A DNA stretch of 64,000 nt from Spirochaetia bacterium. Its GTDB lineage: Bacteria; Spirochaetota; Spirochaetia; CADAEX01. Position 1 is the first letter of the stretch; every line of letters starts with the position of its first letter. The notes below the pieces were generated by a model. That model was not told the origin of the DNA. It ran no database searches and saw only the letters and a list, made by a program, of their open reading frames with translations. The stretch spans positions 1,088,001 through 1,152,000 of the forward strand of contig OY759746.1 in the NCBI GenBank assembly GCA_963662795.1, written 5' to 3'. Below are positions 42,935 to 52,102 of the stretch, piece after piece. Made by a program: the position numbers and the translations under genes.

Positions 42935-43579
42935 ATGGCTAAATTGTGGAAAAAACAGGAATCAGTTTTTTCAAAGATTAAGATTTATTTTGAAAAAGCG
43001 GATTTGACACGCGATGTATTTAAAAAAACTATTGCAGATCTAATCAGACAGACACCTGACGTCGATTTTGGAGAGGCAGTGGAACTGGTACATGCGGCAG
43101 AACATGAAGCAGATATCAAGAGAAGGGAAGTTATTACGGAACTTTACCGGAAAGCTTTGATACCGGGATCCAGAGGTGATGTTCTTGGGCTGCTGGAAAA
43201 TTTTGATCAGCTTCCCAATACTTTCCAGAAGATATGCAACCAAATATACTTCCAGAATGTAGTATTTCCTGAAAACTTCAGGGAAAGAATCATTGACCTT
43301 ATAAATGTAAATATTGATGCATATAATCTCACCAAAGATGCAGCATTCTGTCTTTTTGATGAGGCGGATCTGGTAAATAAAACTGAACTCATTTGCGAAA
43401 AGGAAAGAGAATCAGATGCAAGGGAAAGAGGACTTACACGTGATATCTTTAACACGGATATGGAACTTGCCCTTAAAATGCTTTACAAGCAGATTATCAT
43501 TTCCATAGGTAATATTTCAGACATAGCAGAAGATATTTCAGACAGGGTTGAAATAGCTGTCATAAAAAGGAGACTATAA
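42935..43579 (+). CDS. DUF47 (TIGR00153) phosphate-transport regulator, Pit accessory protein
   Basis: EHEAD..RR, LIPGSRGD, ERESD, ISDIAED; directly upstream of PiT. Confidence 0.9.
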   Translation: MAKLWKKQESVFSKIKIYFEKADLTRDVFKKTIADLIRQTPDVDFGEAVELVHAAEHEADIKRREVITELYRKALIPGSRGDVLGLLENFDQLPNTFQKICNQIYFQNVVFPENFRERIIDLINVNIDAYNLTKDAAFCLFDEADLVNKTELICEKERESDARERGLTRDIFNTDMELALKMLYKQIIISIGNISDIAEDISDRVEIAVIKRRL

Positions 43580-43582
43580 TAA

Positions 43583-44524
43583 ATGTTCAGGCTGTTAAGC
43601 GGAATATTTATGGGCTGGTCTCTAGGTGCCAATGATTCCGCTAATATATTTGGCACGGCTGTCTATTCAAGAATGATCAGGTTCAAGACAGCTTTATTCT
43701 GGCTTTGTATTTTTATTGTTTTAGGGTCAATGCTGCAGGGCGCGGCAGGGATGCATACATTAAGCGGTCTCGTTGTGCAGAATATGAATACCGCTTTTAT
43801 TACAGCGTTTGCTGCTGCATTGACTGTTACTGTTATGACGTTTTATGGTCTTCCGGTATCAACTTCCCAGGCAATGGTCGGGGCGATAATGGGGATTGGG
43901 GTTGTAATCGGACAGATTGATTTTTCAAAACTTCCAAAAGTTTTTGCATGCTGGGTTGGTACACCGGTAGGATGTGTTATTGCAACAGTAATACTGTATC
44001 CGCTTCTGAGTAAGCTTTTTTCAATTCTTAAAATGAATATATTCAGGCAGGATTCTGTACTCAGATGGGGACTTATAGCAGTAGGCTGTTACGGGGCATA
44101 TTCTTTGGGAGCCAATAACGTAGCTAATGTCACAGGCATATACATCGAAACAGGTCTTCTTAATGTAACCCAGGCGCTGATTCTCGGCAGCCTCAGCATC
44201 TGTATCGGGGCAATTACCTACAGCAGAAAAGTAATGATGACAGTCGGGGAAAAGCTTGTAAGACTTGACGCCTTCAGCGCATTCGTTGCTGTTCTCTCAA
44301 TGTCGATAATATTAAATATTTATGCAGTAGTAGGCGTACCGGTTTCTTCGTCACAGGCGATAGTCGGAAGTGTACTAGGTATAGGTATTGTTAAAGGTGT
44401 TAAAACCATCAACATAAGGACCTTAATAAATATTGTAATAGGATGGCTGACAACTCCAGTAATTGCAATGATAGTATCAATTGCATTATATGTCGGAGCA
44501 ATAAAAATACTTGGGATAAACTGA
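43583..44524 (+). CDS. Inorganic phosphate transporter, PiT family
   Basis: GANDSAN and GANNVAN signature motifs, PVSTSQ and PVSSSQ repeats. Confidence 0.93.
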   Translation: MFRLLSGIFMGWSLGANDSANIFGTAVYSRMIRFKTALFWLCIFIVLGSMLQGAAGMHTLSGLVVQNMNTAFITAFAAALTVTVMTFYGLPVSTSQAMVGAIMGIGVVIGQIDFSKLPKVFACWVGTPVGCVIATVILYPLLSKLFSILKMNIFRQDSVLRWGLIAVGCYGAYSLGANNVANVTGIYIETGLLNVTQALILGSLSICIGAITYSRKVMMTVGEKLVRLDAFSAFVAVLSMSIILNIYAVVGVPVSSSQAIVGSVLGIGIVKGVKTINIRTLINIVIGWLTTPVIAMIVSIALYVGAIKILGIN

Positions 44525-44591: not shown

Positions 44592-45086
44592 ATGAATGAA
44601 GAAATAATCCAGCTTTGCGACCTGAAGGGAACCCCCTGCGGCACCTCTCCCAGATCAGTCTGCCACAAAGATCCGTCACTTATACAGATGGTAGTTCACC
44701 TTATGGTAATGAATTCAGGAGGCAGCTTTTTTCTTCAAAAAAGGGCTTTTTCCAAAGAGGCCTTTCCCGGATACTGGGACACATCTGTCGGAGGGCACGT
44801 AAGCGGCGGGGAAAACCTGATGCAGGCGCTGAAACGCGAGGCTGATGAGGAGATAGGGATTGAATTAATCCATGCAGATTTTGTCTTTAAAAAGCTGTAT
44901 TTTATGGAAAATGAAACAGAGATGTCTTTCTTTTATAAAACTGTTTATGACGGTCCTTTCAGGATAGACAATGACGAAGTCACAGAAGGACGCTTCTTTA
45001 CAGCCGGAGAAATAAGTCCCCTGATAGGCACGAATATATTTACTCCAAGCCTTGAAAACGGGTTTTTGGCTATTTCAGGCAATTAA
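44592..45086 (+). CDS. NUDIX hydrolase (IDI/YfcD-like)
   Basis: LQKRA...PGYWD, Nudix box GGHVSGGENLMQALKREADEEIG. Confidence 0.9.
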   Translation: MNEEIIQLCDLKGTPCGTSPRSVCHKDPSLIQMVVHLMVMNSGGSFFLQKRAFSKEAFPGYWDTSVGGHVSGGENLMQALKREADEEIGIELIHADFVFKKLYFMENETEMSFFYKTVYDGPFRIDNDEVTEGRFFTAGEISPLIGTNIFTPSLENGFLAISGN

Positions 45087-45988
45087 AACATAGGAGTCGG
45101 ATAAATATTTGACCACTGATTAACAAGGTCCAGAAAATCCTTGAGCGGTTTTGAAAAATACTTGTCGCTGTGATATATCATGTAATACTTTCTCCTAAAA
45201 TTTTTGTCCTCAACCGGAACAGCGACAAGCCGGCCGCTGGCAACTTCTTCCGTAACCATATTATTGGATATAAAAGCAACACCCATTTCATGCTGGACAA
45301 GCCGCTTTATTGCTTCACTGTTTGATATTTCATAATTCACATTCACATCAATTTTATACTTTCTTATAAAACTGTCTGTTATTTTCCTGGTCACAGACCC
45401 TTTCTCGTGAAGAATCAGGTTGCATCCCTGGAGGTCGGCAATCTCGAGCCTGTCCCGTCTGGTCAGCGGGAAAGCAGGGTTTGCGATCAGGACAATATTG
45501 TCCTCAAGAACTTCATGCACAGATATTTTGGGATTCTGGATCGGTTTTGATATGAATCCTATATCATTATTCAGGTCAGCTGTATTCTCAATAATACTGT
45601 CATTATGCCCAATCATGACTGAAATATTTATATCCTGATTGGTTCTTTTATAGTATTTAATGATGTAGGGAATATAATAGGCCCCGAAGCTTTCACAGGA
45701 AAGGATATTGATTTTACCCTTGCTGTATTGCTGAAAATCCCTGATACTTTCCTCAGCCTGGCTTTCCATATCAAATATTTTATCTGCGATACTGTATAAA
45801 TGCTCGCCGGCATCAGTCAGAACAACTTTTTTACCGATAATATCGAGGAATTTAAGGTCATAATGACTCTGGAGCTGTTTAATCTGTTTGGTAACAGCAG
45901 GCTGAGTGATGCAAAGAACATCAGCGGCTTTTGTGAGACTTTTATACTTTGCTGTATAATAAAATGTCTTTAAATGATAGAGATTCAT
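45083..45988 (-). CDS. LysR-family transcriptional regulator (CysL/CmpR-like)
   Basis: HTH SLTKAADVLCITQPAVTKQIKQL, EKGSVTR, SEAIKRLV. Confidence 0.95.
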   Translation of the reverse strand: MNLYHLKTFYYTAKYKSLTKAADVLCITQPAVTKQIKQLQSHYDLKFLDIIGKKVVLTDAGEHLYSIADKIFDMESQAEESIRDFQQYSKGKINILSCESFGAYYIPYIIKYYKRTNQDINISVMIGHNDSIIENTADLNNDIGFISKPIQNPKISVHEVLEDNIVLIANPAFPLTRRDRLEIADLQGCNLILHEKGSVTRKITDSFIRKYKIDVNVNYEISNSEAIKRLVQHEMGVAFISNNMVTEEVASGRLVAVPVEDKNFRRKYYMIYHSDKYFSKPLKDFLDLVNQWSNIYPTPMF

Positions 45989-46024: not shown

Positions 46025-46741
46025 TCAAGTATATTTTAAGATATTATCAAGCTCCAGAAGCGCTTCAAGCCGGTTTATCTCGGGAACCTGAAAAGCGGGC
46101 TCAGGCCAGTTTCTTTCAACTGAATAATGCTTCAGCCAGACAGGGTTTAGGCCGGCGTTTTTACTGCCTTCAATGTCAATTTTCATATCATCCCCGATAA
46201 ATACCGCTTCTTCTCCCTTTACTCCCAGTTTTTCAAGTATTATCCGGAAAGGGACCGGGTCAGGTTTTGCAGGGATATCACCTTCCCCGGCAATAACAAT
46301 AGCGTCAAACAAGACTTCAAGCTTTCTATATTCTTCGTTATCAAGAGCTTTTGTGCTCCCGTCTTTCTGCGAGTTTGAAACCATACCCAGTTTATATTTT
46401 GTTTTAAGTTTTTCAAGTACACTGACCGTTTCGGGAAAGAGACGCATGCTGCTCCCTACAATCTTCCAGTATTCATCTTCAAGCTGCATCAAAAAACCTT
46501 CATCAACCGAAGCTTTATACTTTGAACACAGCGTTATCCATACATTTTTCCTTGAAAAATCAGATCTGCTAAAATGTTCTTTTCTCTCTTTACGGTAATC
46601 CTCAATATATTCATCCCAGGAGATGCCGATGGTTCCGATTCTTTCAAACAGATCTCTTTGTGATTTTTTTTCTGCAGTTTTATATCCGTCTGCGGCTGAT
46701 CCAAGAGTCTGAACAAAATCAAAAACTATGGCTTTTATCAT
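46025..46741 (-). CDS. HAD-superfamily (IA) hydrolase
   Basis: FDFVQTL, VSN, KPDP.PF, FIGDDMKIDIEG; SD aggag before ATG 46741. Confidence 0.85.
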   Translation of the reverse strand: MIKAIVFDFVQTLGSAADGYKTAEKKSQRDLFERIGTIGISWDEYIEDYRKERKEHFSRSDFSRKNVWITLCSKYKASVDEGFLMQLEDEYWKIVGSSMRLFPETVSVLEKLKTKYKLGMVSNSQKDGSTKALDNEEYRKLEVLFDAIVIAGEGDIPAKPDPVPFRIILEKLGVKGEEAVFIGDDMKIDIEGSKNAGLNPVWLKHYSVERNWPEPAFQVPEINRLEALLELDNILKYT

Positions 46742-46806
46742 ATTCTTCACTCCTGTTTATATTCACACTGCCGGAATATTTACATTTTTTTCCATAGCCG
46801 GATTAC

Positions 46807-46833
46807 AAAAACGGGCTCCTCAGGGAGCCCGTT
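46807..46833 (-). terminator. Intrinsic terminator after the acylating aldehyde dehydrogenase
   Basis: aacgggctcc/ggagcccgtt stem, TTTTT on the minus strand. Confidence 0.75.
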
Positions 46834-46865: not shown

Positions 46866-48257
46866 TTAACCAATCAGTTTTTTAGCCTTTTCAAGATATG
46901 GACCATAAACTTCTTCATCTGTCGGCACATACTCAGGTATAGGAACAGCCATTCTCGTGGTATTCATAAAATGCCTGTAGTTGATGTTATCGCTGTGACT
47001 GTTGCCTGTCCATGTTCCGCAGCCGATTGTTGTTGTAAATTCGTGACCGGCGAAAAAGCTGCCGCTGTTTACAATTGTATTCGGCATATTGATATTTACC
47101 CTTCCGGTTGGAATATATTCGGCAAGCCTTTCCCACTGCTGGGGTTTTGCGGAATGAAGTGCGCATGAATGCCCGATTCCGGAGAAGAGCAGATTCTTTT
47201 TGAGAGTTTTGATTTCCTCTTCAAAATCTGTCCATGTCCATACGGTAAGGACAAGGGAGAGCTTTTCATTTGAAAACATGTCTTCAGGTCCGATTTTTTG
47301 CCCTTTTACCATAATGAATTTTGTCCCTTCAGGAACAGAAATGCCTGCAATTTTTGCAATATTCTGAACAGAAGATGCAACAATATCCCTGTTAAGGGTG
47401 TGTCCGTCAGGCCACATTGCTTTTCTGAGTTTTTCCCTGTCTTCATCGCTTAAAAGGAATCCGCCTACTTTTTTAAGCTCTTCCATCATTTTGTCATATA
47501 CTGAAACATGAATCGATACAGCATTTTCTGATGAGCATGATGTTGCATTGTCAAAAATCTTTGATCTCATAACACAGTCAGCAGCTTTTGCAAGATCAGC
47601 TGAAGGATCAATAATTGCCCTTACATTGCCTGCACCTACGGTGATGGCTGGAGTACCGGCTGCATGAACAACCTTGATAAGGGCTTTTCCGCCTGTAGCG
47701 ACTGCAAAATCACATGTTGACATGAGTTCTACTGTTTTTTCGTTTGTAGGCTCTTCAATGCAGAGCATCAGATCCTCAGGAGCTCCGAATGCCTTGAGTG
47801 CTTTTCTTCCATATTCAACAGTTCTGAATGTAGACTGCTTTGTTCTCGGATGGGGCGAGCAGATCATGGCATTCCTTGTTTTAAGAAGTGAAAGGCCGAT
47901 AAAACAGGTTGTTATCGTCGGGTTGGTACAGGGGACGACATTGGCAACAACACCGATCGGTTTGGCGTATGTCTTGATTCCCTTTTCTTTATCATCTTTA
48001 ATGAGACCGCAGGTTTTCTTCCCTTTCATGTCCCACATTATTCCTCTTATCTTGTTAGCCTTTTTTACCTTGTCTTCATAAACACCCATTCCGGATTCGT
48101 CAACTGCAAGTTTTGCAACTTCGCGGGCAAAGTCTTCCTTCTGCCACTGCCATGCGACTACCGCAAGCATTTCATCAACCTTTTCCTGGGGCCAGAATTC
48201 TATTACCTCAAATGCTTTTCTGGCTCTGGCATACATCTCTTTAATATTATCAGCCAT
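46866..48257 (-). CDS. CoA-acylating aldehyde dehydrogenase (SauS/SucD/AdhE-N-like)
   Basis: PIGVVANVVPCTNP, ATGG, VGAGN, SKIFDNATSCSSEN (catalytic Cys), EKLS, GCGTW.GN..SDN; as recalled, closest to sulfoacetaldehyde dehydrogenase SauS. Confidence 0.85.
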   Translation of the reverse strand: MADNIKEMYARARKAFEVIEFWPQEKVDEMLAVVAWQWQKEDFAREVAKLAVDESGMGVYEDKVKKANKIRGIMWDMKGKKTCGLIKDDKEKGIKTYAKPIGVVANVVPCTNPTITTCFIGLSLLKTRNAMICSPHPRTKQSTFRTVEYGRKALKAFGAPEDLMLCIEEPTNEKTVELMSTCDFAVATGGKALIKVVHAAGTPAITVGAGNVRAIIDPSADLAKAADCVMRSKIFDNATSCSSENAVSIHVSVYDKMMEELKKVGGFLLSDEDREKLRKAMWPDGHTLNRDIVASSVQNIAKIAGISVPEGTKFIMVKGQKIGPEDMFSNEKLSLVLTVWTWTDFEEEIKTLKKNLLFSGIGHSCALHSAKPQQWERLAEYIPTGRVNINMPNTIVNSGSFFAGHEFTTTIGCGTWTGNSHSDNINYRHFMNTTRMAVPIPEYVPTDEEVYGPYLEKAKKLIG

Positions 48258-48285
48258 TTCCTTAAATCTCCTTGTTTACACCTGA

Positions 48286-48314
48286 CATTACCCCGGTAAT
48301 TTACCAGGGTAATG
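48286..48314 (-). other. Intercistronic stem-loop
   Basis: cattacccc-ggtaa-t-ttacc-a-gggtaatg between the lyase-like genes and the dehydrogenase; no T-tract. Confidence 0.5.
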
Positions 48315-48400
48315 GTTGTTTTTCAGATACTTAAATTCCTGTTGTGCAGGTTTATAACTGCAGGACGTTTGTAAAAACATCCTGCAGATTCATTAGAATA

Positions 48401-49465
48401 CTATTTTTTTGAAACACTGGCCTTTCTTGGGTCCTCAATAACATACGGTATAGAGTAAGCTGAACCTTTGAGTCTTTCCATTTCTTTCCAGCCTTTATCC
48501 CAATCCTTGGCAGTCTGATACTGTGTCCCTTTTTCCGGTCTTTCAGAAAGCGCAGGAACCGGCTTGTCAACCGGACCGTCATACCACTCTTTCGGAGTAA
48601 GTGTCTGGCCAAGAACGTCTGAAGATTCTCTTTCCATCTCTTCAATTGCATGGGAACCTGCAGCAAAGGCCCTTGTAACTGACAAAACACACCAGGCAGC
48701 ATCGCTTGAAAACTCAAGCTCCATCATTGCAGCTGACATTGCTCCTATCATATCGACTTCCACATAGCCAATCTTTTCCTTGGCAGCTTTAACTATTTCT
48801 TTCATAAGTGGAACATATCTGAGTTTTTTTACGCCTTTAAGTTTTTTCTCTGCAAAATCAAGAAGCTTTGAAGGTGTTGGATCTTTTACATAAAGATCTG
48901 AAACACCGAAATGGTCTTCATACTTGCATTCATCTACGCAAAGTTTTGCAGCATCTGCAAGACTCATTCCTTCTTCTACTTTTGCAGCATATTTTGCAAG
49001 CATCTTTCCTGTTGCGTCATATGAAGCATAGGAGTGGCCGAAAGCAAGAACTGAACCGCCGCAGGCCTGTGTTACATAAGACTTGCCTCTTGCGATAAGT
49101 CTTGCTATAAGGGCAGGATTTGAAAGTCCGTCTTCAAGGCCGAGAACCATTACATATTCAAGTACATCTTTCTCTTCCTTAAGAGGAATTCTTGCCTGAT
49201 AATCAATAAAGATAATATCACAAGTACCATAACCTGCTTCAACAAGTTCTGTTGTGTCATAACCTCTTGTGACAATCCTGTGGATATTCTTGTAGGCAAC
49301 TTCAGATACCCATTTAAATCCTTCACGGTTGTCCGGGGGAAGTGTACCGACCTCCCTGTTTGTATAGTCAAATTTCAACTTTGGACTTGCAAGGTTTCCA
49401 ATAGTAGGTCTCTTTGCAAATTTCATCTGTCCGATTCTTTCATCTGAATGTTTTACAGCGCCCAT
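48401..49465 (-). CDS. Citryl-CoA lyase-like (citrate synthase fold) protein, subunit B, catalytic residues degenerate
   Basis: IVTRGY..TEL, RIP, EDGLSNP, VLAFG, DPT, DMIGA, TRAF..GSHAIEE; clearly paralogous to the upstream ORF. Confidence 0.75.
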   Translation of the reverse strand: MGAVKHSDERIGQMKFAKRPTIGNLASPKLKFDYTNREVGTLPPDNREGFKWVSEVAYKNIHRIVTRGYDTTELVEAGYGTCDIIFIDYQARIPLKEEKDVLEYVMVLGLEDGLSNPALIARLIARGKSYVTQACGGSVLAFGHSYASYDATGKMLAKYAAKVEEGMSLADAAKLCVDECKYEDHFGVSDLYVKDPTPSKLLDFAEKKLKGVKKLRYVPLMKEIVKAAKEKIGYVEVDMIGAMSAAMMELEFSSDAAWCVLSVTRAFAAGSHAIEEMERESSDVLGQTLTPKEWYDGPVDKPVPALSERPEKGTQYQTAKDWDKGWKEMERLKGSAYSIPYVIEDPRKASVSKK

Positions 49466-50349
49466 CTTTTATATTCTCCTGATTCTAACTGTTTCTTTGC
49501 ATAAGCCTGTCTTTCTGACATAGGAGGCACTTCCCTGTCTTCCGGACCCACATATTTGATCATGGCGAGGTCAAGCATCTGTACCATCGGTTCATTTCTT
49601 GATGCAGCCCAAGCCCTTCCTTTTTTAAGTGTATAAAGAGCGTGACATGCGCAGCTGAAACCTCTGGTCACACAGCCGATAACCCATGCTGCATTCGGAG
49701 CAAAACCCATATCAGCAAGTGCTACGTTTCCGGCTCCTACCATGTTAACTGCTACATAAGCTCTTCCTTCAGCAGCTCTTCTTGCGTAGAATTTCTCTTC
49801 AAGTGCTCTCTGGAATTTAAGGTAAACACCGCCTACTCCGAGTTCTTCCTGTTTGAGGTGTGTCGGTTCAGCTCTCGGATCACCGTCAAGGTGCTGGGGC
49901 TGTCCCATTCCCATAACCGCAAGGCCTGCATCCATGTACTCTGTTACGCATTCACCGGCAACCTGCTCAGGTGTTTTATCCTGTTTGACTGCCCTGTCAA
50001 GATATTTCTTGATCATGTATCCGTGAGCAGCTCCGGGTCCGTGCGCTCCGCCGAATGTCATTATTGATGATGCTACAGCCGCGGGAAGCATAGGGTGACC
50101 GTTAATAACTGCAATAGAACTTACTGCAGAAGGCGACATAGAGTGCTCAAGAAATTCAGCAACTTCGTAGTCAAGCATGGCTCTTTCATTTTCCGCAGGA
50201 ATCCTTCCCTGAAATAGCACAAACAGTGCGTCGGCAAAAGTGTAACCTGCCTCGGCAAGATCACTTACATTAAAACCCCTTAAAACTGTCTTTTCTTCTG
50301 TCTTGTAGGAAATGGCAGTTTTTCTCTGGATCAATGGTTTCCGATCCAT
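49453..50349 (-). CDS. Citryl-CoA lyase-like (citrate synthase fold) protein, subunit A
   Basis: KTAIS...LRGF..SDL, GRIP, EHSMSPS, FGGAHG, GMGQ, DPR, NMVGA, TRGF..ACH; SD aggagga. Confidence 0.8.
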   Translation of the reverse strand: MDRKPLIQRKTAISYKTEEKTVLRGFNVSDLAEAGYTFADALFVLFQGRIPAENERAMLDYEVAEFLEHSMSPSAVSSIAVINGHPMLPAAVASSIMTFGGAHGPGAAHGYMIKKYLDRAVKQDKTPEQVAGECVTEYMDAGLAVMGMGQPQHLDGDPRAEPTHLKQEELGVGGVYLKFQRALEEKFYARRAAEGRAYVAVNMVGAGNVALADMGFAPNAAWVIGCVTRGFSCACHALYTLKKGRAWAASRNEPMVQMLDLAMIKYVGPEDREVPPMSERQAYAKKQLESGEYKRWAL

Positions 50350-50456: not shown

Positions 50457-50522
50457 AAGTTAGATTATTCAATACATAATGTCAACTTATTTATATTCAT
50501 TACTTTGATAACTGAGAGTTAT
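50457..50522 (-). promoter_or_regulatory. sigma70 promoter with two LysR-type ATAA-N7-TTAT boxes
   Basis: TTGACA(50485-50480)-N17-TAACTT; ATAATGTCAACTTAT (50476-50490) overlaps the -35; ATAACTGAGAGTTAT (50508-50522) lies at about -65. Confidence 0.7.
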
Positions 50523-50691
50523 TAAAAAGCGGTTTTTGCGGGTAAATTTGACCTGCAGGGGCAATTTAGCTGCATTTTCCAAATTTTTAAAACTGAGGTT
50601 TAAATCTGTATAGCAGACATTTATTATAACAAACAAACTATACTATTTTGCATTTTTATATTATTATGGGTGTTAATAAAAAATCGTTATT

Positions 50692-50722
50692 AAAGAACAA
50701 CTGCACCGCAGTTGTTCTTTTT
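50692..50722 (+). terminator. Terminator-like hairpin just upstream of citrate synthase
   Basis: aaagaacaactgc-acc-gcagttgttcttt then tt; 36 nt before the start codon. Confidence 0.55.
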
Positions 50723-50758
50723 CCTTTCAAAAGCAGATATTTTCATGGGGAGAACACA

Positions 50759-52102
50759 ATGAACAGTGATTTTATAACAAAAATGAATGCCTTGGTTATT
50801 GCAAACAATAAAATCGACCCTGAACTGTATAAAAAGTACAATGTAAAAAGAGGACTCAGAAACAAGGACGAATCAGGTGTACTTGTCGGACTTACTGAAA
50901 TCGGCGATGTCCACGGTTATCTTTTTGATGAGGGAGAAATGCTGCCTGACGAAGGGAGACTTCTTTACCGCGGTATAAATATCAAGGATTTAGTAAAAGG
51001 AATGATAGCAGATGACCGCCACGGCTTTGAAGAAACAACCTACTTTCTCCTTTTCGGCGAACTTCCTTCATCTGACCAGCTTGAAGAATTTAATATTGTC
51101 CTTGATTCCTACAGGAACCTGCCTAACGGTTTTGCAGAAGACATGATAATGAGGGCGCCAAGCCGCGATATCATGAACAAACTCGCCAGGAGTGTTTTGG
51201 TATCATATTCATACGATAAGGATGCTGACGATATCAGTATTAAAAATGTACTGCGTCAATGCATAGAACTGATTGCCCGTCTTCCGACTATGGCGGCCTA
51301 CGGCTATCAGGCTAAATCCCATTATCACGATGGCAAAAGTCTTGTTATCCACAAGCCTAAACCCGGAATAGGAACAGCCGAGAACCTTCTGCATCTTATC
51401 CGCAGCAACAGCGAATATACAAAACTTGAAGCCCAGGTCCTCGACCTTGCCCTCGTTCTTCATGCAGAACATGGAGGGGGCAACAATTCTACCTTTACAA
51501 ATCATGTTGTCACATCAACAAATACAGATACCTACGCTGCAATTGCTTCCGCGTTATGCTCCATGAAAGGCCCCCGGCACGGCGGTGCAAACAAAAGAGC
51601 CCTCAATATGATGGACAATATTATGGAAAATGTTAAAGACTGGAACAATGAAGATGAAATTTGCGGATATCTTGGAAAAATACTGAAAAAAGAGGCTTTT
51701 GATAAAACAGGACTTATTTACGGTTACGGACATGCAGTTTATACACTTTCAGACCCGAGAGCAGTACTGCTTAAAGCCAAAGCGGCAGAACTTGCTGAGG
51801 AAAAAGGACTTGATAAGGAATTCAACCTGTACAGGAATGTTGAAAAGCTTGTCCCTGAAGTTCTTTTCAAAGAAAAAGGTTATGAAAAAAAGATATCGGC
51901 CAATGTTGATTTTTATTCCGGCTTTGTCTACAGGATGCTGAACATCCCTACAGCGCTTTACACTCCAATTTTCGCGATTGCGAGAATGGCCGGCTGGTCT
52001 GCCCACAGGATTGAAGAGCTTATAAGCGGAGGCAGAATAATCAGGCCTGCATACAAGAATGTTTCTGAAAGAAAGGAATACGTTCCTCTACCTTCAAGAT
52101 GA
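50759..52102 (+). CDS. gltA: Citrate synthase (Si-type; citrate/2-methylcitrate synthase family)
   Basis: GRLLYRG, HAEHGGGNNST, GPRHGGAN, GYGHAVY, DPRA, ANVDFYSG, AIAR, IIRP; start ATG 50759 with SD ggggag. Confidence 0.92.
   Translation: MNSDFITKMNALVIANNKIDPELYKKYNVKRGLRNKDESGVLVGLTEIGDVHGYLFDEGEMLPDEGRLLYRGINIKDLVKGMIADDRHGFEETTYFLLFGELPSSDQLEEFNIVLDSYRNLPNGFAEDMIMRAPSRDIMNKLARSVLVSYSYDKDADDISIKNVLRQCIELIARLPTMAAYGYQAKSHYHDGKSLVIHKPKPGIGTAENLLHLIRSNSEYTKLEAQVLDLALVLHAEHGGGNNSTFTNHVVTSTNTDTYAAIASALCSMKGPRHGGANKRALNMMDNIMENVKDWNNEDEICGYLGKILKKEAFDKTGLIYGYGHAVYTLSDPRAVLLKAKAAELAEEKGLDKEFNLYRNVEKLVPEVLFKEKGYEKKISANVDFYSGFVYRMLNIPTALYTPIFAIARMAGWSAHRIEELISGGRIIRPAYKNVSERKEYVPLPSR

Follow-up and report, generated by a model that had tools for sequence, protein, structure and literature searches.

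Two citrate-synthase-fold proteins and a CoA-acylating aldehyde dehydrogenase in a Spirochaetia bacterium: a proposed CoA-dependent branch of phosphonate catabolism

What reaction may be carried out by a pair of citrate-synthase-fold proteins that have both lost the catalytic Asp of their family? The question is raised by a locus in the genome of a Spirochaetia bacterium (assembly GCA_963662795.1), in a stretch of 64,000 nucleotides (nt) of contig OY759746.1 (positions 1,088,001–1,152,000 of the forward strand) that is referred to below as the window. Two paralogous genes, termed A and B, overlap here by 13 nt (ATGGGCGCTGTAA, read directly) and are followed by a gene for an aldehyde dehydrogenase (ALDH) of the coenzyme A (CoA)-acylating type and by a terminator-like hairpin, as a preliminary description of this DNA had stated; all are on the minus strand. 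The same overlap recurs in other loci whose coordinates were inspected. That description ended the module at the hairpin; its A-B-ALDH part stands, and a HAD-superfamily hydrolase and a LysR-family regulator that it left out are also members of what is termed here the cassette. Most likely, the cassette represents a branch of hydrolytic phosphonate catabolism that depends on CoA and is as yet undescribed, and the balance of the evidence leans modestly towards A/B as the enzyme that would cleave the carbon-phosphorus (C-P) bond in a route through phosphonoacetyl-CoA.

The A and B subunits

The A protein matches the Pfam family PF00285 with 42.9 bits, over the cut-off of 27, and B is under it at 17 bits. 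The best solved relative of both is the citryl-CoA lyase (CCL) structure PDB 6hxp (E-value = 9.8e-17 for A and 8.9e-6 for B). Neither reaches the cut-off of 212 bits of the NCBIfam CCL models (PRK06224), on which A scores 115.5 and B 69.3 bits. In the alignment with 6hxp, A retains the EH, AHG and DPR motifs and the late Arg, while GYGH is changed to GMGQ and NVD to NMV; the equivalent motifs in B are EDG, SYA, FGV, DPT and DMI. The motifs given for both subunits in the preliminary description are thus borne out. An AlphaFold2 model of A alone is poor, with a mean predicted local distance difference test (pLDDT) score of 57.1.

Residue conservation was assessed in 69 A and 62 B sequences, the window's own included, and active-site positions are labeled by pig citrate synthase numbering (His238, His274, His320, Arg329, Asp375, Arg401). 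Invariant residues in A (69/69) are E68, H69, H103, H109, Q150, Q152, H153, D157-P158-R159, N202, R229 and H236. H69 is the equivalent of the enolate-stabilizing His274, and the His238, Arg329 and Arg401 equivalents are also retained, i.e. the enolate His together with two of the three oxaloacetate-binding Arg residues. The third Arg, presumably the one supplied by the partner subunit in citrate synthase, appears to be lost. The catalytic-Asp site (position 204 of A) is V in 37 and I in 32 sequences, and D in none. The equivalent of His320 in the G-x-G-H signature is Gln in 69/69; in citrate synthase this His acts on the hydroxyl/carbonyl group. In all 62 B sequences the His274 equivalent is Asp112 and the Asp375 equivalent is L, M or I; Tyr or Phe is found at the His238 site and V, I or Y at the His320 site, and Arg329 is lost.

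Median identity to homologs across phyla is 72% for A and 51% for B. Whether the substitutions persist in homologs had been posed as a check, and they do; because they are conserved in this way, the changes in A and B are family traits and not accidents of a single sequence. An A that retains active-site residues and is the better conserved, beside a degenerate B, fits the "catalytic + structural" division suggested earlier. Likewise, the invariant loss of the catalytic Asp fits the suggestion of an acyl-CoA reaction other than citryl-CoA cleavage.

A and B are predicted to form a heterodimer. The interface score ipSAE is 0.88 (median of three runs) versus 0.00 for the best control, with a partner pLDDT of 87 or more and at least 92% of contacts shared between runs. 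Among solved complexes, 58 of 80 attain the ipSAE mark, as do 2 of 110 mismatched pairs; these counts hold only roughly here as the prediction used custom alignments with CoA riding along. The predicted complex supports the heteromer that had been proposed from the two overlapping genes.

A family set of 447 relatives was drawn from 1.84 billion cluster representatives, and 96 full-length representatives were aligned. The catalytic column holds Asp in 51 of these and another residue in 45. In a midpoint-rooted FastTree tree of the 96 sequences, a single clade of 14 tips (support 0.967) unites A and B with five further Asp-less forms. Within it the B types are monophyletic (support 1.0) and nested among Asp-less relatives; B therefore originated by duplication in a lineage that had lost the Asp before.

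Asp-less representatives (among P0124–P0273) carry A, T, V, L, I, N and other residues at the catalytic position, and most of them are outside the phosphonate-linked clade. Many CCL-like proteins outside this clade may thus carry out other chemistry. Two cluster representatives, P0093 (468 amino acids (aa)) and P0104 (427 aa), display A with an N-terminal domain of ~130 residues resembling cytidylyl/adenylyl-transferases (PF01467); these may be real fusions or merged gene calls. A search of genome contigs gave no relatives of P0127, which is 42% identical to A.

One member of the 14-tip clade, termed C3, is a single-subunit protein of ~310 aa with 35% identity to A. It keeps the His320 equivalent and lacks only the Asp. 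In five of ten loci C3 is followed by a cassette-type ALDH (~60% identical to that of the window), and among these five an HpnZ-type alcohol dehydrogenase (ADH) follows in four and an MFS antiporter in one. C3 is present within a full A/B phosphonate cluster in one of the ten loci, comes after a pair of CoA-transferase genes (A and B) in one (L096), and has other contexts in the remaining three. What stays constant is thus the pairing of an Asp-less citrate-synthase-fold protein with an acyl-CoA-making enzyme. This pairing supports a thioester substrate, with the citrate-synthase-fold protein acting in the step that follows. In the planctomycete loci L089 and L091, a GFO_IDH_MocA-type oxidoreductase (L089:4119–5648, L091:6322–7905) precedes C3 (at 8001), and no ALDH or phosphonate gene was found near C3 in either.

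Phosphonate genes near the cassette and elsewhere in the genomes

A search of one genome per species in a 185,579-species collection yielded 213 stretches with an A relative, and the best 80 of these are the loci analyzed here. Neighbor markers were mapped on the 80 loci by tblastn, and phosphonate markers were counted within 8 kb. The loci span six or more phyla, with members in Spirochaetia, Desulfobacterales, Syntrophales, Planctomycetota, Opitutales, Chloroflexota and other groups. B follows A in 77/80 loci, the other three being cut by contig ends; ALDH follows A-B in 67/80, and the HAD gene is downstream of ALDH in 52/80. One or more phosphonate markers (PhnW, PbfA, HpnZ-type ADH, PhnCDE and PhnA among them) are present in 44/80 loci, and PhnW, PbfA, PhnD or PhnE in 31/80. 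In 13/80 loci PhnW is situated between B and ALDH.

Representatives of these neighbors score over their cut-offs: PhnW-AepZ (415.5 vs 360.8 bits), PbfA (717 vs 525), PhnA (479 vs 407.55), as well as PhnC and PhnE. The neighboring Zn-alcohol dehydrogenase is of the HpnZ type ("putative phosphonate catabolism associated"), and the MFS neighbor is of the organophosphate:phosphate antiporter type. No sulfonate-specific genes were recognized in the annotated neighborhood clusters.

PhnW and the HpnZ-type dehydrogenase make, or are thought to make, phosphonoacetaldehyde. PbfA is reported to yield the same aldehyde (PMC8154272). Since these neighbors all lead to phosphonoacetaldehyde, the cassette sits where a consumer of this compound would be expected. 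With the aldehyde supplied by PhnW, PbfA or an HpnZ-type ADH in other phyla, ALDH would act before A/B. The preliminary description had offered, as its more speculative option, that A/B acts on the ALDH product. This option is best supported for phosphonoacetyl-CoA, given the 44 loci with phosphonate markers; its sulfoacetyl-CoA form finds no recognized sulfonate gene.

The ALDH is a full-length member of the acylating branch (EutE/PduP/SucD/SauS), with residues 4–452 aligning to its closest solved structure, the acylating succinate-semialdehyde dehydrogenase SucD (8cei, 320.9 bits). The likeness to SauS noticed earlier holds, in that SauS (NF047625) is the best NCBIfam model, although the score of 487.5 bits is under the cut-off of 600. 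The acetaldehyde-type models EutH_ACDH and AdhE give 331 and 389 bits. The catalytic pair Cys241-Ser242 is invariant in 57/57 cassette ALDHs, and the equivalent pair in CkSucD is Cys242-Ser243 (PMC10249356). A comparison of specificity residues with CkSucD gave no clear answer: of the positions that bind the distal carboxylate, Ser242 is kept and the Lys70 site is I, T or V, and a nearby Lys and Arg are also found in the two ALDH paralogs of this genome. As substrates of SauS and SucD are short anionic aldehydes, phosphonoacetaldehyde would fit better than acetaldehyde.

Phosphonate enzymes were also counted in 50 cassette genomes, mostly metagenome-assembled genomes (MAGs), and in a separate sample of 201 genomes of the window's phylum. 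PhnW is over its cut-off in 38/50 cassette genomes, PhnX in 0/50, PhnA in 4/50 (all PhnW-negative) and PhnJ in 1/50. Among the 38 PhnW-positive genomes, 30 display no PhnX-like protein, PhnA or PhnJ, i.e. no candidate C-P cleaver besides the cassette. A is present in 6 genomes of the phylum sample; PhnW is over its cut-off in 4 of these 6 versus 21 of the 195 A-negative genomes, related genomes not being independent. The two A-positive genomes that lack PhnW are 85% and 64% complete.

The genome of the window, a single contig of 3.93 Mb, has several phosphonate modules. PhnW (404.7 vs 360.8 bits) adjoins genes for a GntR regulator and a TAXI-TRAP transporter. Each of two PbfA proteins (676 and 633 vs 525) has TAXI-TRAP genes next to it, each of two HpnZ-type ADHs (333.8 and 328.2, cut-off 328.1) has TRAP genes next to it, and PhnCDE is present away from the cassette. 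From these dispersed genes, at least five modules would converge on phosphonoacetaldehyde. None of PhnX, PhnY, PhnA and PhnJ is found over its cut-off in this genome; the best match to the PhnY model (271 vs 635 bits) is away from the cassette. Three PEP (phosphoenolpyruvate)-mutase-like genes (C1:588367–589215, 1470102–1470959 and 2493146–2493958) score 405.3, 318.7 and 292.8 bits (cut-off 319.55), and the organism is therefore a probable producer of phosphonates in addition to being a degrader. An IS1182-family transposase (271.3 vs 270 bits; L086:4297–5835, C1:2824297–2825835) adjoins the second HpnZ-type ADH/TRAP module.

A proposed route and its alternatives

We infer the substrates and reactions of the following route from gene content, conservation, co-occurrence and the heterodimer model. 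The A-B-ALDH-HAD genes, with the LysR regulator, would form the lower half of a pathway by which anaerobes break down 2-aminoethylphosphonate and phosphonates related to it. Phosphonoacetaldehyde would be made elsewhere in the genome by PhnW, PbfA or HpnZ-type ADHs, and the SauS/SucD-like ALDH would convert it to phosphonoacetyl-CoA with NAD(P)+ and CoA. The A/B heterodimer would bind this thioester, the citrate-synthase fold being suited to stabilize an acetyl-CoA enolate, and would cut the C-P bond so that the enolate departs; the products would be acetyl-CoA and phosphate. This would parallel the C-C cleavage of citryl-CoA lyase with phosphorus replacing carbon; the phosphorus of phosphonoacetyl-CoA would sit on the carbon that citryl-CoA bonds to C3 of the citrate moiety. 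The retained His of A may stabilize the enolate. The Asp was perhaps lost to make room for the phosphonate, and its loss would fit, because C-P cleavage needs no base to form the enolate. Candidate ligands of the phosphonate group are Arg159, Arg229 and His103, along with two additional invariant residues, His109 and His153, and the HAD protein may take part in or complete removal of the phosphoryl group.

Several points weigh against this route. The enolate formed by C-P cleavage would have to be protonated, yet A/B is without the Asp that normally serves as acid/base. The heterodimer prediction may mirror a likeness to known structures, because citrate synthase and CCL homodimers are solved, and AA or BB dimers would also be compatible. 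Neither the window nor any of the Spirochaetia loci L001–L017 showed a phosphonate gene within 8 kb of its cassette; because none adjoins the cassette, its link to phosphonates here rests on other phyla and on the dispersed genes. In addition, the palindrome ATAAC-N5-GTTAT found upstream of A was not found (with one mismatch or less) upstream of the PhnW, PbfA, HpnZ, PhnCDE or DUF47-Pit genes of this genome. Its PhnW could be biosynthetic, since the genome has PEP mutase. A phosphonatase-type route may coexist, because a PhnX-like hydrolase of this genome keeps the equivalents of Asp12 and Lys53 of PhnX. PhnA or PhnA-like proteins, present in 11 loci, would be redundant if A/B already cuts the C-P bond. 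MAG incompleteness weakens every count of absence given here, so that none of them proves absence. Finally, the HAD protein, which strictly co-occurs with A/B and whose motif I is without the general-acid Asp, could itself be the C-P hydrolase.

This last alternative is regarded as unlikely, and it is the one with most in its favor. An Asp nucleophile of the HAD protein would attack the phosphorus of phosphonoacetyl-CoA, the thioester would replace the Schiff base of PhnX, and A/B would isomerize, position or protonate the intermediate. The HAD protein belongs to the cassette. It is single-copy in 44/50 cassette genomes and, in the phylum sample, is present in 4 genomes, all A-positive, and in 0/195 A-negative genomes. 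D11, K162, D187, D188 and D192 are invariant, which places it with the HAD phosphotransferases by motif. Motif I reads F-D-F-[G/V]-Q-T, with G or V in place of the usual +2 Asp, motif IV (GDDxxxD) is of the Mg-binding type, and the Arg-rich cap has R53 and R56 invariant. In phosphomonoesterases the +2 Asp of motif I is the general acid; PhnX and P-type ATPases are likewise not known to have it.

On the other side, the cap has no invariant Lys for a Schiff base, and the PhnX model TIGR01422 is absent among the 21 NCBIfam matches of the HAD protein at E-value = 1e-5 or less. A fold search with its structural model, which is confident (pLDDT 92.7), gave PH0459, NANP and 2-haloacid dehalogenases as top neighbors and not PhnX, and named no functional relative. 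A is far better conserved than the HAD protein (mean column identity 82% vs 52%). Neither A/B nor the cassette HAD was found in five C3-only genomes (MAGs); with 0/5 of these C3 + ALDH genomes having the HAD, a citrate-synthase-fold protein and ALDH can therefore stand without it.

C-P cleavage could also take the form of a phosphoryl relay on the thioester, shared by two enzymes, and this is thought quite unlikely. A/B would move the phosphoryl group of phosphonoacetyl-CoA from carbon to oxygen or another acceptor, in the manner of a reverse PEP mutase; the product would be an enol-phosphate or other high-energy phosphoryl species, which the HAD protein would hydrolyze or from which it would pass the phosphoryl group on. 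The single-subunit C3 systems without HAD would then be directly hydrolytic ancestors. If the relay is real and a nucleotide can accept the phosphoryl group, a phosphonate would become a source of substrate-level phosphorylation for anaerobes.

Alternatively, a PhnX-like phosphonatase may cut the C-P bond, with ALDH acting as an acetaldehyde dehydrogenase that yields acetyl-CoA and A/B carrying out an unrelated condensation. The PhnX-like HAD hydrolase mentioned above (L085:10925–11668, C1:711925–712668) is found in an operon with an HpnZ-type ADH and TAXI-TRAP genes, and scores 160.6 bits on TIGR03351 (cut-off 218.9) and about 110–111 on the PhnX model (cut-off 220). PhnX-like proteins of 105–118 bits are present in 11/50 cassette genomes and, among the 80 loci, inside three (L040, L057 and L068). 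The window and 17 Spirochaetia loci (L001–L017) also have a true citrate synthase gene that is divergent from the adjoining cassette. This neighbor, however, is confined to one lineage, PhnX-like matches of at least 100 bits are missing from 39/50 cassette genomes, and ALDH scores far higher on SauS than on the acetaldehyde dehydrogenase models. A condensation also needs the Asp base that is present in no A, and the proposal appears very unlikely.

A/B could instead be a phosphonoacetyl-CoA thioesterase, using the hydrolytic half-reaction of citrate synthase, with PhnA or a PhnA-like protein then cleaving phosphonoacetate. PhnA or a shorter PhnA-like protein is present in 11/80 loci, mostly directly after HAD, and the genome of the window has a PhnA-like gene (L084:6290–7399), apart from the cassette. 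The latter, at 172.7 bits, is far under the cut-off of 407.55, and true PhnA is limited to the four PhnW-negative genomes noted above. Moreover, to make a thioester and then hydrolyze it wastes energy, which the non-acylating PhnY route avoids. A thioesterase is thus considered very improbable. The short PhnA-like form, a protein of the alkaline-phosphatase family (~365 aa) that is well under the PhnA cut-off, follows HAD in L022, L028, L031, L043, L046, L048, L053 and L065 (Syntrophales/Desulfobacterales-type).

A sulfonate version, in which sulfoacetaldehyde is converted to sulfoacetyl-CoA and desulfonated by A/B, would agree with SauS as best family model and with the close analogy of sulfoacetaldehyde and phosphonoacetaldehyde. 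It is highly improbable: ALDH is under the SauS cut-off, the annotated neighbors are phosphonate genes and phosphate transporters with none specific to sulfonates, and the SauS partners described (PMC10413351) are SauT or SauCD, not a citrate-synthase-fold protein. The retro-aldol reaction of the preliminary description, in which A/B cleaves a hydroxyacyl-CoA and ALDH captures the released aldehyde, agrees with the CCL fold and with an ALDH gene downstream in the operon, but can practically be set aside, as PhnW, PbfA or an HpnZ-type ADH in the same operons elsewhere supply the ALDH substrate with no need of A/B, and the residue expected to act on the hydroxyl/carbonyl is Gln in every A.

Locus features, regulation and known systems

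The features of the locus are listed in Table 1. The ATG of B is preceded by AGGAG and that of A by AGGAGG, which resemble Shine-Dalgarno motifs. The hairpin (46833–46810), a pattern match only, begins 33 nt past the ALDH stop codon. Three terminator-pattern sites were found in the region versus 5.6 expected from shuffled sequences, and the pattern alone is therefore weak. The divergent neighbor of A is a bona fide citrate synthase (710.7 bits, cut-off 426). Its open reading frame is 484 aa long from a TTG, relatives have 446–449 aa, and the NCBIfam match starts at residue 39; the true start is probably farther downstream than the annotated TTG. A second terminator-like hairpin (50692–50720) is inside this N-terminal extension. 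No ATP-grasp/CoA-ligase gene of the citryl-CoA synthetase type was found among 15 neighboring open reading frames, ~9 kb on each side, in agreement with the earlier statement that none is close by.

Table 1. Positions in the window of the cassette genes and adjoining features.
Feature	Position	Strand	Description
Subunit A	49453–50349	minus	298 aa, proposed catalytic subunit, citryl-CoA-lyase-like
Subunit B	48401–49465	minus	354 aa, degenerate paralog of A, proposed structural/partner subunit
CoA-acylating ALDH	46866–48257	minus	463 aa, proposed phosphonoacetaldehyde dehydrogenase making phosphonoacetyl-CoA
Terminator-like hairpin	46810–46833	minus	10 pairs, 7 G-C, then TTTTGT; between ALDH and HAD gene
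HAD-superfamily hydrolase	46025–46750	minus	241 aa, cassette-specific; possible C-P/phosphoryl hydrolysis step or accessory
LysR-family regulator	45083–45988	minus	HTH_1 and LysR_substrate domains; probable cassette regulator
DUF47 (PhoU-like) and PHO4/Pit phosphate transporter pair	42935–44524	plus	Pfam; possible phosphate-handling accessory
Candidate LysR-type operator	50508–50522		palindrome ATAAC-N5-GTTAT (T-N11-A), 159 nt upstream of A start codon
Citrate synthase	50648–52102	plus	divergent from A

The LysR protein scores 186.8 bits on phn_lysR, a model associated with aminoethylphosphonate (cut-off 341), and a relative adjoins the cassette in 22/80 loci. An exact ATAAC-N5-GTTAT match is found once in the window (0.03 expected). 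It is also present 120–270 nt upstream of A in 22/80 loci, 16 of Spirochaetia and 6 others. Outside L001–L017, five loci with the palindrome are labeled Deltaproteobacteria/Desulfobacterales and one (L024) Spirochaetaceae. The palindrome loci have in common the extension ...GTTAT[CT]AAA-N3-ATGA. The palindrome is a good candidate for the operator of the cassette LysR. Genome-wide, it occurs 6 times versus ~10.6 expected. A regulon joining the cassette with the phosphonate genes within this genome was considered and rejected, there being no palindrome near those genes.

Relatives of the Pit/DUF47 pair are beside the cassette in 7/80 loci of two phyla, and their association with it is weak. The DUF47 gene of the window (at 42935) has no palindrome upstream. 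Three relatives among the Spirochaetia have a second palindrome immediately before DUF47-Pit (L004:15629–15643, L005:15913–15927, L006:15682–15696), which suggests that phosphate transport is within the same regulon in these loci. NUDIX genes near the cassette are IPP-isomerase/YfcD-like in Spirochaetia and NudE-like in Deltaproteobacteria; as these are two unrelated types, NUDIX was rejected as a single conserved part of the cassette. Contigs of a sediment RNA library (X20), 80–99% alike, span 47.3–50.3 kb of the window (A, B and the start of ALDH); DNA carry-over is possible and such contigs cannot show transcription, so they count neither for nor against expression of the cassette. A further library, X22, probably represents DNA.

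Phosphonates are a large pool of organic phosphorus. To our knowledge, few types of enzyme break the C-P bond: PhnX, PhnA, PalA, PhnZ-type oxygenases and C-P lyase. If the proposed route is correct, A/B would be a further family of this kind, with phosphonoacetyl-CoA as a new intermediate, and acetyl-CoA and reducing power would be gained with no free acetaldehyde and no need of oxygen. Anaerobes of sediment, gut and digester widely carry the cassette (sulfate reducers, syntrophs, planctomycetes, verrucomicrobia, Chloroflexota and spirochaetes). The route could thus explain the use of aminoethylphosphonate by many PhnW-positive anaerobes that lack any known C-P hydrolase, and would give a function to one clade of the Asp-less CCL-like proteins.

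In the full-text literature, with subscription papers and supplements outside the scope, no catabolic role of phosphonoacetyl-CoA was found, and citrate-synthase-like proteins were nowhere connected with the degradation of phosphonates. The sole paper found with the term phosphonoacetyl-CoA, a preprint (10.64898/2026.01.15.699783), treats it as a hypothetical biosynthetic intermediate. No CoA route is named in the available parts of a 2023 review of phosphonate degradation (PMC10574752), or mentioned in those of the PbfA paper (PMC8154272).

Four known systems can be compared with the cassette. The first is citryl-CoA lyase, i.e. Ccl of Hydrogenobacter thermophilus (6hxp) and the CCL module of ATP-citrate lyase, which has the fold and size class of A/B. 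A keeps the enolate-stabilizing His and two substrate-binding Arg residues, and the proposed reaction would also free acetyl-CoA by cleavage of a bond at C2. Unlike the homomeric CCL, A/B is a heteromer of two paralogs (as modeled), every member is without the catalytic Asp and the His320 equivalent, there is no citryl-CoA synthetase nearby, and the pair is accompanied by an acylating ALDH and HAD in phosphonate clusters.

The PhnW-PhnX pathway would have in common with the cassette route the entry enzymes PhnW/PbfA and the intermediate phosphonoacetaldehyde. Both have a HAD-superfamily protein, both cleavages would use a carbonyl-type electron sink beta to phosphorus, and the net products would be equal if acetaldehyde is later oxidized to acetyl-CoA. 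In contrast to that pathway, PhnX is not found over its cut-off in cassette genomes and the cassette HAD is without the invariant cap Lys. Oxidation to the thioester is proposed to precede C-P cleavage, and free acetaldehyde would therefore be avoided.

In the PhnW-PhnY-PhnA pathway, C1 of phosphonoacetaldehyde is likewise oxidized before the C-P bond is cut, and PhnA is present in a minority of cassette loci. The difference is in the dehydrogenase, which here is of the CoA-acylating Cys type (SauS/SucD/EutE branch), so that the product would be a thioester and not the free acid.

Lastly, SauS and SucD are the closest family model and structure of the ALDH; the Cys-Ser pair matches that of CkSucD, and their substrates are short anionic aldehydes. 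Sulfoacetyl-CoA pathways are described as pairing SauS with SauT or with SauCD of the succinyl-CoA-synthetase type (PMC10413351). The cassette ALDH differs in being under the SauS cut-off, in having Ile, Thr or Val at the Lys70 site of SucD, and in its partners, which are A/B and HAD in place of SauT, SauCD or the enzymes of 4-hydroxybutyrate metabolism.

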